Positions 42,598-46,941 of a stretch of 46,941 nt of DNA are shown in pieces (the first letter of the stretch is position 1; every line of letters begins with the position of its first letter). Location of the stretch: assembly GCA_030608465.1 (NCBI GenBank), contig JAUWEC010000003.1:1-46941 (forward strand). The letters run 5' to 3'. Below the pieces are notes generated by a model. The model worked only from the letters and a program-made list of their open reading frames with translations. It was not told where the DNA came from and made no database searches. The stretch is from Chloroflexota bacterium. GTDB lineage: Bacteria > Chloroflexota > Anaerolineae > Anaerolineales > UBA11858. A program made the position numbers and the translations under genes.

Positions 42598-43311
42598 TCA
42601 ATCTGCGAAATGCGAATAGCGGCTTTCTGCCAGACGCTGTTTGCCTTCTTCTAATAAATCGTCTGGAATGACTCTAAAGGTCTCCCCCACATTAGGGTCT
42701 TGGGGTGTGCGGGGAGCTTTTCCATATGCAATGGAATTTATTGCTTCAACCATCAATTCTCCTGCCAGTATGGCAATGCGATAATTAATGCTTTCATAAG
42801 TATCATGGCGATAGACAGGAAGCTGCCTTGAGACAATAATGTCGCCGGTATCAATTCCTGGGTCTATAAAGTGAGCGGTAGCACCTTGCGGCATGTCTTT
42901 ATATAAAGCCCAGCCTACCGAAGATGCCCCGCGCAGCCAAGGAAGTAAGCCTGGATGTGAATTGACCGTAGATTGGCACGGCACTTCAAGGATGTTTGGT
43001 TTGATGATGCGCGTTCCACCTAATACTAGTACATCAGGTTTATCGGCTAAGAGCAATTCTTTACAGGTGTCGTCATTATGATTGGATACACAATATACCG
43101 GTATCTTCCTCCCAGAGATCAATTGCGTCAGATGCGGTGGCACTGGCTGACCTGCAATGCGCGTCAGGAATTTTTCGCGCTCTACATCACCCACATTTGA
43201 CACCTCTTGGATGATCATACTGGGTACCAAGTCGTTTTCCAATAGGATTCGCAGCATCTCCCGTCCATAGGGATGTTCTTCTAATACTAGAAAAGCAAAG
43301 TGGAGGGACAT
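42598..43311 (-). CDS. Formyltransferase-family protein (N-terminal domain only)
   Basis: NSHPGLLP..RG, GATAH.ID.GIDTGDI; lacks the Fmt C-terminal domain. Confidence 0.8.
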   Translation of the reverse strand: MSLHFAFLVLEEHPYGREMLRILLENDLVPSMIIQEVSNVGDVEREKFLTRIAGQPVPPHLTQLISGRKIPVYCVSNHNDDTCKELLLADKPDVLVLGGTRIIKPNILEVPCQSTVNSHPGLLPWLRGASSVGWALYKDMPQGATAHFIDPGIDTGDIIVSRQLPVYRHDTYESINYRIAILAGELMVEAINSIAYGKAPRTPQDPNVGETFRVIPDDLLEEGKQRLAESRYSHFAD

Positions 43312-44569: not shown

Positions 44570-44598
44570 CAGGTTCTCCCTGTTCTAATCAGGCTACT

Positions 44599-44633
44599 AA
44601 AAATAATAACACGCCCCCACAAGGGAGGGCGTG
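44599..44633 (-). terminator. Attenuator-type intrinsic terminator in the tyrS 5' leader
   Basis: CACGCCCTC-CCTTGT-GGGGGCGTG followed by TTATTATTTTT, about 30 nt before the tyrS start. Confidence 0.8.
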
Positions 44634-44669
44634 ATGAGAAGCACTGGTCTGTTGTTCGATCCAGCGCTT

Positions 44670-44720
44670 CTAAAGAGGATAATAATATCCAGTCAGATTT
44701 TGTGGTTTTTCACTGAACAT
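44670..44720 (-). CDS. Putative tyrS leader peptide MFSEKPQNLTGYYYPL
   Basis: ATG...GGA TAT TAT TAT CCT CTT TAG; three tandem Tyr codons; ATG lies 7 nt after TGtTATAAT. Confidence 0.75.
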   Translation of the reverse strand: MFSEKPQNLTGYYYPL

Positions 44721-44727
44721 AAATTTG

Positions 44728-44736
44728 ATTATAACA
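44728..44736 (-). promoter_or_regulatory. Extended -10 promoter for the leader-tyrS transcript
   Basis: TG-T-TATAAT on the minus strand. Confidence 0.7.
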
Positions 44737-44751
44737 AATAATTAATCTATC

Positions 44752-44781
44752 GGATACAGTTTCCTCAATGAAACCGTATCC
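44752..44781. terminator. Hairpin downstream of ileS
   Basis: GGATACAGTTTC / GAAACCGTATCC inverted repeat; weak U-tract on the minus strand. Confidence 0.45.
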
Positions 44782-44813: not shown

Positions 44814-46941
44814 CTACTCAACAACCTTTAATCCCAAGGTCACTTCCTCACCTTCGAAACTTGAGGTTCCGCTGTACATGTCTTTTTCCGGGTCGCCTTC
44901 ACTCATTTCTACCGTGAGAGTCTCTTCCATGATGTAGTCTCGATGGGTTTCAATAGCGTTTTGGAGGGTTGGCGAAGCCTGGTAAACCAGGGAAATCCGG
45001 TCGGATATATTAAATTCTGCTTGTTTTCGGAAGTCCTGGATGCGGCGAATGATTTCCCGCGCAAGTCCTTCATCCCGCAGTTCCGCAGTGATCTCGGTTT
45101 CAATGGCAATGGTAAGCAGTTTGCTGTCCACTGTGGATAAGCCTTCTGCTGCTTCACTGCGGAGGAGGACTTCTTCTGCGGTGAGCTGGATTTGTTTCCC
45201 CTCCAGTTCTAGGGGTATATTTTTGCCTTCATTCACCAGGGTGACAATTTCCTCCGGATCCTTTTCAGACAAAGCGGCTTGAACTTTTGGGAAGTCCGTC
45301 CCGTACTTTGGTCCCAGGGCACGATTGTTTGGAAGCACCTTATAGACCAGGAGGGATTTTGCATCCTGGACAAATACCAGGTCCTTAACATTTAGCTCGT
45401 CTTTGACGATTTCAATCAGCTCTTTATCAAGTTCTGCTCGACCTTCTTTGACGTGAACCAGTACTTGAGCGAGAGGTTGACGGACTTTGATCCCAACATT
45501 GCTGCGGGCGCTTAGTCCCTGGCTGGCGGTTTCCCGGGCTAATTTCATCTGATCGATTAATTTTTGATCGATGGCATTCTGATCTACATCAGGCCAGAGG
45601 GTGTGGTGGATACTCTGGTGGGCATCCGGGTATAATGACCTGACAAGGTTCTGGTAGATTTGTTCGGTGAGGAAAGGAATCACCGGGGCCAAGGAGCGGC
45701 TCATCTTTACCAGGACGTGCCAGAGCGTTTCGTAGGCGGTGTTTTTATCCTGGTCAGTCTCTGTTTTCCAATATCGCCTCCGGGAGCGGCGGACATACCA
45801 GTTACTCAGATCATCCAGGAGGGACTCGAATTCCAGGGTAGCGTTATATGCGTTTGAGTTTTCCAGATCCGATGTGACCTGTTCTACGGTCTGGTTTAAC
45901 CGGGCCAGGATCCAGCGGTCCAGCGGATTTTGACTTTCTGGTGTAGGTCCTTCGGGATAATCCTGGTCAAATTTCTTTGATTCAGGGGACCAACCGTCGA
46001 TTTCGGCATAGGTGGTAAAGAAGGAATAGACATTCCAGAAAGGAATGATGAACCGGCGGCGGGTTTCCTCCGCGCGGTGATAACCAAACAACAGGTTGTT
46101 TTCCGGTTTATGCGCGCTGTACAGCCAGCGCATAACATCCACGCCCATTTTATCCGCGGCTTCGTTGAACTCTATTGAATTTCCCGAGGATTTATGCATT
46201 TCCCGGCCATCTTCTGCATGCAAGCTGGCGTAGCTGAAATTCTCCAGGAAAGGAGGCGAGTTGTCCAGAACGGTCCCCATGGCAAGTAAACTGTAGAACC
46301 AATTGCGGAATTGTCCCGGAAATGATTCGCTGATCCAGTGAGCGGGATACCACTTTTCCCAGAATTTCGGATCAGTCCGGAAACTCAAAGTGGAAAATGG
46401 CACAATGCCCGCATCCAGCCAGGGATTGCCCACATCGGGAATACGGGTCATCTTTCCACCGCATTTATCGCAGGCCAACACTACCTCATCGATAAACGGG
46501 CGGTGAGGTGTATGCCCTTTGAGGGCGTCAAATCCCTCTATGGCTCTTTCTTCCAATTCCTCTTCATCACCAATCACATGGAAATGATCACAATCCTGAC
46601 ATACCCAGATCGGCAAGGCTAATCCCCAGTAGCGTTTTTTGGAAATCATCCAGTCGTGCATGTTTCGCAGCCAATCCAATTCACGGGCGTATCCAAAATC
46701 AGGGATCCAGCGGATTTGATCCACTACATCCATAATTTGATAGCGCAGGCTGGACTCCTTCTCTTCCGCGGTAATCTCTTCCCGGGGTTTCTGGTAGTTC
46801 TCACCCATGTTGATGAACCATTCATCCACCAGACGGAAAACGAGTTCGGTTTTACAGCGCCAACAGGTGGGATAGCGGTGCGTATAGGGTTCTACATGAT
46901 ATAGAATGTCTTTTTCTTCCAGGTTTTTAAAAATTTCATCC
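44814..46941 (-). CDS. ileS: Isoleucyl-tRNA synthetase type 2, 5' end outside the window
   Basis: Frame is open to the window edge (HRYPTCWRCK); DWMISKKRYWG, PWLDAG, EMHKS, LSNWYVRRSRRR, IKVRQPL, EG.AREI.RRIQ. Confidence 0.93.
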   Translation of the reverse strand, partial: DEIFKNLEEKDILYHVEPYTHRYPTCWRCKTELVFRLVDEWFINMGENYQKPREEITAEEKESSLRYQIMDVVDQIRWIPDFGYARELDWLRNMHDWMISKKRYWGLALPIWVCQDCDHFHVIGDEEELEERAIEGFDALKGHTPHRPFIDEVVLACDKCGGKMTRIPDVGNPWLDAGIVPFSTLSFRTDPKFWEKWYPAHWISESFPGQFRNWFYSLLAMGTVLDNSPPFLENFSYASLHAEDGREMHKSSGNSIEFNEAADKMGVDVMRWLYSAHKPENNLLFGYHRAEETRRRFIIPFWNVYSFFTTYAEIDGWSPESKKFDQDYPEGPTPESQNPLDRWILARLNQTVEQVTSDLENSNAYNATLEFESLLDDLSNWYVRRSRRRYWKTETDQDKNTAYETLWHVLVKMSRSLAPVIPFLTEQIYQNLVRSLYPDAHQSIHHTLWPDVDQNAIDQKLIDQMKLARETASQGLSARSNVGIKVRQPLAQVLVHVKEGRAELDKELIEIVKDELNVKDLVFVQDAKSLLVYKVLPNNRALGPKYGTDFPKVQAALSEKDPEEIVTLVNEGKNIPLELEGKQIQLTAEEVLLRSEAAEGLSTVDSKLLTIAIETEITAELRDEGLAREIIRRIQDFRKQAEFNISDRISLVYQASPTLQNAIETHRDYIMEETLTVEMSEGDPEKDMYSGTSSFEGEEVTLGLKVVE

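Follow-up and report, generated by a model that had tools for sequence, protein, structure and literature searches.

How is tyrS, the gene for tyrosine--tRNA ligase, controlled in a bacterium where no T-box precedes it? In Bacillus and other Firmicutes tyrS is a textbook T-box gene, and leader-peptide attenuation has been described for the Trp, His, Phe, Leu, Thr and Ile/Val operons and for a few synthetase genes. We analysed a stretch of 46,941 nt (hereafter the window; contig JAUWEC010000003.1, positions 1 to 46,941, of assembly GCA_030608465.1) from a Chloroflexota bacterium of the order Anaerolineales. An earlier note, made from the sequence alone, had pointed out a short open reading frame (ORF) with three consecutive Tyr codons upstream of tyrS on the minus strand, followed by a hairpin (H1) and a terminator, and had read these as an attenuator in which ribosomes stall at the Tyr codons. 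Every coordinate that it gave proved correct, and the elements that it named are all in place: the -10 box, the 7-nt gap, the ATG, the 16-codon ORF, the Tyr-Tyr-Tyr run, H1, the terminator and the ribosome binding site (RBS) of tyrS (Table 1). The feature is real and conserved. Moreover, comparative tests favour the stalling interpretation, and we consider that tyrS is, quite probably, controlled by a ribosome-mediated transcription attenuator responding to charged tRNA-Tyr.

The Tyr-codon leader and its distribution

Between positions 43000 and 46000 none of the 4227 families of Rfam 15 gave a match at E <= 10, except for a chance small RNA hit inside tyrS. This negative includes the T-box model (RF00230) and the curated amino-acid leader families (His, Leu, Thr, Trp and Phe). 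The absence of a T-box hit, which the earlier note had anticipated, is meaningful because five sites on other contigs of this genome do match the same model, two with scores that exceed the gathering score of Rfam. Downstream of these sites lie pheS, ileS (5′ part), thrS, the gene for an unidentified 462-aa protein, and leuS. Judged by these matches, the organism uses T-boxes for several synthetase genes and not for tyrS. The window holds the 3′ part of an ileS; given the T-box ahead of the 5′ part, this gene is probably T-box controlled, unlike its neighbour tyrS.

Among 41 relatives 38 have a tyrS gene, and across the order it was found in 364 of 401 genomes, a tally that includes one unpublished genome (G239), otherwise unused. 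The 130 upstream regions that we compared consist of the 30 best matches from relatives and 100 from the ~150 best-scoring places listed for the order. The latter were picked by taking every new genus or family member and then the first-listed members of other families; families with more divergent tyrS are under-sampled among the 130 loci. Between -300 and -20 of tyrS we counted, in any frame, doublets of one amino acid lying no more than 6 codons from a stop. Tyr doublets occur in 95 of the 130 loci. The runner-up, Leu, reaches 44 loci, ahead of Arg with 33; the two-codon amino acids apart from Tyr range from 2 to 19 (Lys 19, Phe 18, Asp 7, His 6, Cys 5, Asn 4, Gln 4, Glu 2). In the window's genome, which has 45.7% G+C and in which one tRNA-Tyr(GUA) gene was found, Tyr makes up 3.15% of codons and TAT accounts for 64% of the Tyr codons in long ORFs.

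A locus was scored as having a putative attenuator when an ORF ended in a Tyr-Tyr or Tyr-x-Tyr tail and a terminator-like hairpin followed its stop within 75 nt. This arrangement, which the stalling interpretation leads one to expect in orthologous leaders, is present in 100/130 loci, in 43 of the 55 genera of the order and in 27/32 loci of the window's genus. Since related genomes do not count as independent, the genus count is the fairer figure, and the terminator finders are crude enough that the counts could move by a few loci. In the other orders of the class, a Tyr-tailed leader ORF with a terminator was found at 5 of 28 tyrS loci, representing 28 families.

The leader peptides of 42 loci share only the Tyr run and differ at all other positions; a conserved arrest-peptide sequence of the TnaC or SecM kind was not found among them. 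Even the Tyr codons vary synonymously, the first two being TATTAT in 64 loci, TATTAC in 25 and TACTAT in 6. The run stands 2-5 codons before the stop, with a distance of 3 codons in 67/95 loci, and as stop codon TAG (52 loci) prevails over TGA (28) and TAA (15). Of the 18 sequences in the genus alignment, 16 have an ORF of 16 codons and the other two are short by exactly two codons; all indels in the ORF are multiples of 3. What is conserved across loci is thus, on the evidence of these alignments, the Tyr codons, the reading frame and the spacing only. From the conservation of the frame we infer that the leader ORF is translated.

At the start of the leader ORF no purine-rich RBS stands ahead of the ATG on the minus strand, as the earlier note had said. 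Among the 42 short-ORF loci the gap between a TAnAAT box and the ATG is 6 nt in 20, 7 nt in 20, 8 nt in 1 and 9 nt in 1, and in 28 of them TGn precedes the box. A gap of 6-7 nt, found in 40/42, is the usual one from a -10 box to the transcription start. Because the ATG sits at this distance, the leader mRNA of the window is probably leaderless, in keeping with what had been suggested. A scan for consensus promoters did not list the -10 box of the leader because no -35 hexamer fits.

The sensor comes in three forms. In 42 loci it is a leaderless mini-ORF as in the window, in 8 a short ORF with no -10 box at its ATG, and in 50 loci it is the tail of a long upstream gene that ends in YY[AST]R[PDKG]-stop. 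The long gene encodes a conserved predicted membrane protein of ~170 aa, lies directly before tyrS (e.g. L021:900-1418 (+) and L027:899-1414 (+)) and has its stop 17-43 nt before the terminator. The protein has a weak bPH_6 match (E 7.8e-4, below the Pfam cutoff); its nearest Atlas clusters are hypothetical proteins of Chloroflexota, and the proteins of two families are 41% identical up to the tail. The C-terminal tail of this protein thus seems to serve as the attenuator sensor. With one query only, its gene was found neither in the window's genome, which is 86% complete, nor in 5 genomes without the long form. Within one family the mini-ORF of L040 ends in NRYYSRP-stop and the long gene of L048 in ..RYYSRP-stop, and because these tails are alike the comparison suggests that the mini-ORFs are remnants of the long gene's end.

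A further leader ORF was seen in L205, a record labelled as a metagenome-assembled genome (MAG) of a delta proteobacterium, whose tyrS is 61% identical. There the ORF MMIKQTGTIYYYNYYYPFYSGEGAYAPVV, with 8 Tyr codons including two runs of three, precedes a terminator and tyrS.

Hairpins between the leader ORF and tyrS

The earlier note could not make out an antiterminator by eye. We found none in the window's family and a clear one in the sister families. In most families other than the window's, the apex of the terminator has a pairing partner, a strand that begins shortly after the stop (median 2 nt). Typically CUCUGCGGUGAG pairs with CUCACCGCAGAG, which runs from the last part of the 5′ arm through the loop into the first part of the 3′ arm. 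The duplex has a median energy of -20.65 kcal/mol (z = -2.3) and beats 95% of shuffles in 34/50 loci. By reading, we also noted compensating changes: CAACGG/CCGUUG in L078, GAUGG/CCAUC in L083 and CAGUG/CACUG in L116. The test used duplexes of individual sequences against shuffles; a MAFFT alignment of 42 classical-type leaders misaligned that strand, and a column scan of it returned short helices only. A MAG labelled Anaerolinea thermophila (L165) carries a classical-type copy. With the stop codon in the A site, toeprint values put the front of the ribosome ~13 nt further on. A ribosome at the stop would therefore cover the first half of the antiterminator strand, and one at the Tyr codons, 3-5 codons upstream, would not. 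As far as sequence allows one to say, the sister families follow ordinary attenuation logic, in which stalling leads to read-through; it is the antiterminator, coverable only by a ribosome at the stop, that fixes this direction of control.

In the window's family a different structure stands in this place. The 168-nt leader of the window folds into H1 plus the terminator, with -53.4 kcal/mol (z = -4.89), and 0/200 shuffles were as stable. H1 (dG -19.9 in the window) has as its 5′ base the A of the leader UAG stop and is separated from the terminator by 3 nt. Throughout the family H1 starts between -2 and +2 of the first stop base, the stop at its base being UAG in 41/41 loci, and its energies range from -11.5 to -24 kcal/mol. 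The window's genus has arms AGAAGCGCUG/CAGUGCUUCU, and the rest of the family has (C)GUAGGGACG/CGUUCCUAC(G). Pairing is kept by covariation in 40 family sequences (columns 19-53, AU 25 and GC 15; 21-51, GC 25 and AU 7; 25-47, UA 20 and GC 11). The terminator is likewise conserved, with 8 consensus pairs in 40 family sequences.

Moreover, the spacings on both sides of H1 are nearly fixed. Counted from the first nucleotide of the first Tyr codon, its 5′ base comes 13-17 nt later in 40/41 loci of the family; this is about the reach of a ribosome that holds this codon in its A site, again by toeprint values. The spacer between H1 and the terminator measures 0-3 nt in 40/41, and along the sequence 38-39 nt separate the stop from the terminator in the genus. 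Outside the genus but within the family, the codons NCC CGU CCG ahead of the stop are able to pair with a GGACGGG that follows it, which explains at the RNA level why [AST]-R-P is conserved in those peptides. A small GGATA/TATCC stem over the Tyr codons, which the earlier note had also described, is present in the window; among 18 core-genus sequences it recurs only in L005 and L031.

Five loci from other orders (L222, L225, L229, L238 and L239) resemble this arrangement. Their ORFs are led by a Shine-Dalgarno (SD) sequence, have 16-25 codons and end in ..Y-x-Y-x-S-G-L-UAG. The stop lies within the 5′ arm (AGCGGAUUGUAGCGC) of a very stable hairpin, and the whole segments fold with -47 to -64 kcal/mol. 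On these predicted folds the adjacent-hairpin design is not confined to one genus, and a second sequence family of it exists in other orders.

Three further ideas were rejected. An 8-bp, G-U-rich pairing between the 3′ arms of H1 and the terminator is conserved but weak; compared with the 5′ arm that the terminator itself supplies it is both weaker and further away, and if it served as an antiterminator, control would run the wrong way. Read-through of the UAG into the terminator is possible in the window, where the frame is open, but L002 has a UGA three codons later. Lastly, a mimic of the tRNA-Tyr anticodon (GUA) in the terminator tail is absent from L003, L011, L015 and L032.

We propose that transcription would start at or next to the leader AUG, and that 70S ribosomes would load on the 5′ end and translate just behind the polymerase. 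When Tyr-tRNA(Tyr) is plentiful, the ribosome would reach the UAG and its footprint would hold the entire 5′ arm of H1, which then could not form. With H1 open, the RNA ahead of the terminator would be single-stranded, the terminator would fold and transcription would end before tyrS. When Tyr-tRNA(Tyr) is scarce, the ribosome would wait with UAU in the A site and its front edge just short of H1, allowing H1 to fold. The folded H1, anchored on the stalled ribosome 3 nt from the 5′ base of the terminator, would lower termination, and tyrS would be transcribed. By the logic of the sister families, and of synthetase genes in general, the stalled state should be the ON state. Folded H1 would then have to reduce termination although it has no base in common with the terminator, and we infer an antagonism of this kind.

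Our favoured hypothesis for how H1 blocks termination is a steric effect, because the spacing between H1 and the terminator is conserved at 0-3 nt and RNA pairing by itself does not account for the block. H1 would loop out 35 nt and bring the stalled ribosome and a bulky helix beside the base of the terminator, whose bottom pairs then could not close inside the RNA exit channel of the polymerase. With H1 folded, by our own count, ~12-19 nt of unlooped chain would remain between the stalled A site and the terminator. Alternatively, the hairpin might act on the polymerase itself, or a translational layer might operate through the H1 3′ arm, which resembles an anti-SD sequence. The combined proposal, that a stall-only H1 acts sterically as an antiterminator sharing no base with the terminator (a 'looped-out spacer') and that the tail of a full-length membrane protein doubles as a leader peptide, is put forward tentatively, and as a whole it is less likely than not.

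A number of results weigh against the attenuation reading as it applies to the window. Several pairing searches, among them a scan of all column pairs of the genus alignment, found no antiterminator that shares bases with the terminator in the window's family. The duplex of spacer and terminator has a median of -12.25 kcal/mol in the family (z = +0.71) and beats shuffles in 0/42 loci; the best duplexes of the H1 arms or the ORF with the terminator reach -6.6 to -11 kcal/mol, as against ~-17 kcal/mol for the terminator itself; and the H1 loop pairs with the 5′ arm of the terminator no better than shuffled loops do. The earlier note had proposed folds with ribosome-masked segments, and these kept the terminator in the free, stalled and stop states alike. 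By RNA pairing alone, the modelled terminator should form in both states. The U-tract of the window is interrupted (UUAUUAUUUUU), and the terminator may be leaky regardless of upstream events. In the other orders the spacer between hairpin and terminator is 3-5 nt by the folds, looser than 0-3 nt. We know of no direct precedent for the steric step.

The distribution has gaps that count on the same side. Nothing of the kind was found in 26 of the 130 loci, and the rule is not satisfied in 9/11 loci of family f15 or in 3/3 of family f8. In the f15 cases (9/11) a promoter lies directly before tyrS; no Rfam match was obtained for 20 such loci either. Within the window's genus, L016 and L018 keep one Tyr codon, and L017 and L019 are without a leader ORF. 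A further member of the genus, L003, has the leader ORF MKINHLRNSFFHHSKL with CAT CAT (His) exactly where its nearest relatives L007, L011 and L034 have TAT TAT; its H1 and terminator are intact despite the His codons. L003 may represent a decayed or retargeted sensor. UAU and CAU are both read by queuosine-modified tRNAs, and a link of the His codons to this modification is conceivable.

On the scoring itself we note that the three f8 loci and one other contain Y-I-Y or Y-V-Y ORFs which the rule missed or which had no detected terminator. L071 and L072 (f8) and L199, for instance, have short R-Y-I-Y or E-Y-V-Y ORFs upstream of tyrS and were scored as having none. The f8 counts under the rule are probably too low.

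Alternative explanations

The alternative that survives best is translational control, which we nevertheless regard as unlikely. Here the CU-rich 3′ arm of H1 (GUGCUUCUC) would act as an anti-SD sequence against the SD region of tyrS (GGGAGAAGC-like): leader ribosomes would keep H1 open and the SD region blocked, and a Tyr stall would let H1 form and free it, with the terminator constant and partial. Such control could also work alongside attenuation. It is in line with the resemblance of the H1 5′ arm (UAGAAGCGCUG) to the SD region of tyrS (GGGAGAAGCAG) in several species, with 5-9 bp that can form between the H1 3′ arm and the SD region (e.g. UGCUUCUC with GAGAAGCA in L009, as read from the alignment) and with a conserved 4-bp UUCU/GGGA contact in the column-pair scan. 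However, any CU-rich strand pairs with an SD sequence, so that complementarity is weak evidence, and the 11-bp H1, with -13 to -21 kcal/mol, is far more stable than a long-range pairing of 5-9 bp and would re-form once the ribosome leaves. Moreover, translational control leaves the conserved spacing of 0-3 nt between H1 and the terminator without a reason, and the sister families use a plain antiterminator on the same terminator.

A regulatory nascent peptide like TnaC, whose Tyr-Tyr-x-Arg end would halt the ribosome from inside the tunnel in response to free tyrosine or a different ligand, seems very improbable. Arg does often stand 1-2 residues past the Tyr run (YY[AST]R[PDKG] in the long form; YYRL, YYYRD and YYSRS in the genus), and in the family a Pro often precedes the stop. 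The [AST]-R-P codons of the family pair with post-stop bases, however, which explains their conservation, and the peptides of the genus differ everywhere but at Tyr. The Tyr codons themselves, UAU UAU in 64/95 loci, vary synonymously. Arrest by free tyrosine would also turn tyrS on at high tyrosine, which is physiologically senseless for a synthetase.

We give just as little credence to a leader RNA that binds a protein or tRNA, be it a divergent T-box or a target of TyrRS at H1 or the terminator, with the short ORF incidental. Within the genus the stems of H1 and the terminator are conserved in sequence and not merely in structure, and E. coli thrS provides an example of synthetase autoregulation by mRNA mimicry. 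Against it stands the lack of any Rfam match at E <= 10 in a genome where the T-box model finds 5 sites. The in-frame ATG, Tyr codons and stop hold fixed spacings while the sequences change across families, and the H1 sequences are wholly different between genera and yet always start at the stop codon.

That the ORF arose by chance between an ordinary promoter and a leaky terminator and senses nothing is hardly credible: at this G+C content and TAT usage TATTAT is not rare in spacers, but Tyr doublets before an in-frame stop far outnumber those of other two-codon amino acids, a Tyr tail with terminator recurs in 43/55 genera, and genome-wide the leaderless short ORF at tyrS is the only one seen with an amino-acid run ahead of a terminator. 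The genome was scanned in two ways. The strict one, for a leaderless short ORF plus terminator over the whole genome, gave 5 hits, of which only that at tyrS has an amino-acid run. A looser one covered 315 terminator-like sites and gave 59 tails with runs, none before another synthetase gene except for a frame inside the pheS T-box. Neither scan yielded a convincing further leader-peptide attenuator in this genome.

Locus layout and relation to known systems

Table 1. Positions of the features at the tyrS locus, in window coordinates, and of the T-box sites elsewhere in the same genome, in contig coordinates.
Feature	Position	Strand	Basis or remark
ileS, 3′ part	44814..46829	minus	ORF and TIGR00392 match, E 7e-94, profile positions 422-852
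Hairpin after ileS, GGATACGGTTTC / GAAACTGTATCC	44752..44781	minus	sequence reading; 12 bp
Extended -10 box TGtTATAAT (TGTTATAAT)	44728..44736	minus	then 7 nt CAAATTT
Leader ORF MFSEKPQNLTGYYYPL, 16 codons + UAG	44670..44720	minus	ATG at 44720, stop 44672-44670; codons ATG TTC AGT GAA AAA CCA CAA AAT CTG ACT GGA TAT TAT TAT CCT CTT TAG
Three consecutive UAU Tyr codons, proposed sensor	44679..44687	minus	sequence reading
Hairpin H1, arms AGAAGCGCTGG (44671-44661) / CCAGTGCTTCT (44647-44637)	44637..44671	minus	folding; 11 bp
Terminator stem-loop CACGCCCTC-CCTTGT-GGGGGCGTG	44610..44633	minus	terminator scan: 9 pairs, 7 G-C
Terminator U-rich tail TTATTATTTTT / UUAUUAUUUUU	reaching 44599 (whole terminator 44599..44633)	minus	
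tyrS Shine-Dalgarno GGGAGAA	44574..44580	minus	sequence; conserved in genus alignment
tyrS, tyrosine--tRNA ligase, 408 aa	43343..44569	minus	TIGR00234, E 3.6e-108, 362 bits, cutoff 113.8
Formyltransferase-like ORF, 237 aa	42598..43311	minus	weak matches below cutoff: PurN E 3.2e-18, Fmt E 3.9e-15
T-box site L211	C159:8067-8328	minus	RF00230 model
T-box site L212	C13:1092-1375	minus	RF00230 model
T-box site L213	C177:1854-2094	minus	RF00230 model
T-box site L214	C11:5149-5402	plus	RF00230 model
T-box site L215	C156:3442-3570	plus	RF00230 model

The hairpin after ileS has equivalents at the same place in L003, L006, L007, L009, L010, L012 and L028, and its weak U-tract extends into the promoter region of the leader. 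It is probably the ileS terminator, in which case the promoter of the tyrS leader would be independent of ileS. On the other side, 32 nt separate the end of tyrS from the start of the formyltransferase-like ORF, also on the minus strand; the two genes may share a transcript, which would put this ORF under the same attenuator. In the genus core the terminator tail is a conserved interrupted U-tract, UUAUUAUGUA, that repeats the UAUUAU of the sensor codons, and more distant genus members have ordinary U-tracts; neither a pairing partner nor another reason for the repeat was found in the genus core.

A search for RNA found one metatranscriptome with 13% of the window's words and three runs from the same sample with none. 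Its contigs gave 6 pieces, of which 4 are 90-95% alike and hence come from relatives; contigs cannot show RNA ends, and these are uninformative in that respect. One of the 6 pieces stops at 44599, just past the terminator tail.

If the attenuation reading is true, tyrosine joins the amino acids sensed by leader-peptide attenuation, and two sensors of tRNA charge coexist in one genome, each given particular genes. The variants described here (leaderless mini-ORF, SD-led ORF, tail of a real gene, classical antiterminator and adjacent hairpin) would form a natural series for what a minimal attenuator needs. Should the adjacent-hairpin form be steric, it would be a new coupling of ribosome position to intrinsic termination and a compact part for synthetic control. 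Moreover, if cultured Anaerolinea thermophila also carries the classical-type copy, bench tests become possible. Two sides of the system are unusual, the sensor that ends a full-length gene and the non-overlapping, stall-dependent hairpin in place of an antiterminator.

Of the features of a known attenuator, the window has the cognate-codon ORF, the terminator and a fixed distance from codons to hairpin; it lacks an overlapping antiterminator. A full-text literature search, with supplements and the survey of Lopatovskaya et al. 2010 outside its scope, found no published tyrS leader peptide, in agreement with the earlier note. The closest synthetase systems are the E. coli pheST attenuator, with the pheM leader peptide (Springer 1985), which combines a cognate-codon ORF with a terminator (PMC11802643), and the leader-peptide attenuators predicted for Streptomyces trpS and leuS (PMC1262725). 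In these, as in the arrangement proposed here, a short cognate-codon ORF and an intrinsic terminator govern a synthetase gene through stalling. The tyrS leader differs from them in that it uses tyrosine, is probably leaderless, has as its sensor the end of a full-length gene in 50/130 loci and, in the window's family, has no antiterminator sharing bases with the terminator.

The likeness to the trp, his, leu, thr and phe attenuators is that the position of the ribosome would pick the RNA fold before the terminator, in a form that is classical in the sister families. The sister-family form, however, has three parts and no 1:2 protector helix, so that an untranslated leader should read through, whereas the form in the window consists of two adjacent, non-overlapping hairpins. 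With the tyrS T-box the system shares the gene and the logic, low charged tRNA-Tyr leading to read-through of a terminator, but sensing would proceed via translated Tyr codons and not by direct binding of tRNA. Our reading of the literature turned up a single regulatory leader with Tyr, AroR (Phe-Tyr-Phe), which lies ahead of aroF in Corynebacterium glutamicum and acts by attenuation (Neshat 2014; PMC11802643); its operon is reported to respond to Phe and to be unaffected by tyrosine availability. AroR is thus alike in having a Tyr-codon leader peptide and attenuation, and unlike in controlling aromatic biosynthesis and not a synthetase.

Lastly, the steric step recalls the repression of terminators at pyrBI and tR2, where a nearby ribosome keeps the terminator hairpin from closing. 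At E. coli tR2, according to PMC4824070, termination falls from ~90% to <10% with a stop codon 5 bp before the terminator and needs >30 bp for full efficiency; across the series it is nearly abolished at 5-9 bp, 0.12-0.8 at 17-18 bp and ~0.9 beyond 30 bp. Unlike at pyrBI and tR2, the ribosome here would never reach the terminator, and a hairpin formed only on stalling would shorten the path instead. By analogy with those data, the two states proposed for the tyrS leader fall either side of the tR2 distance range.

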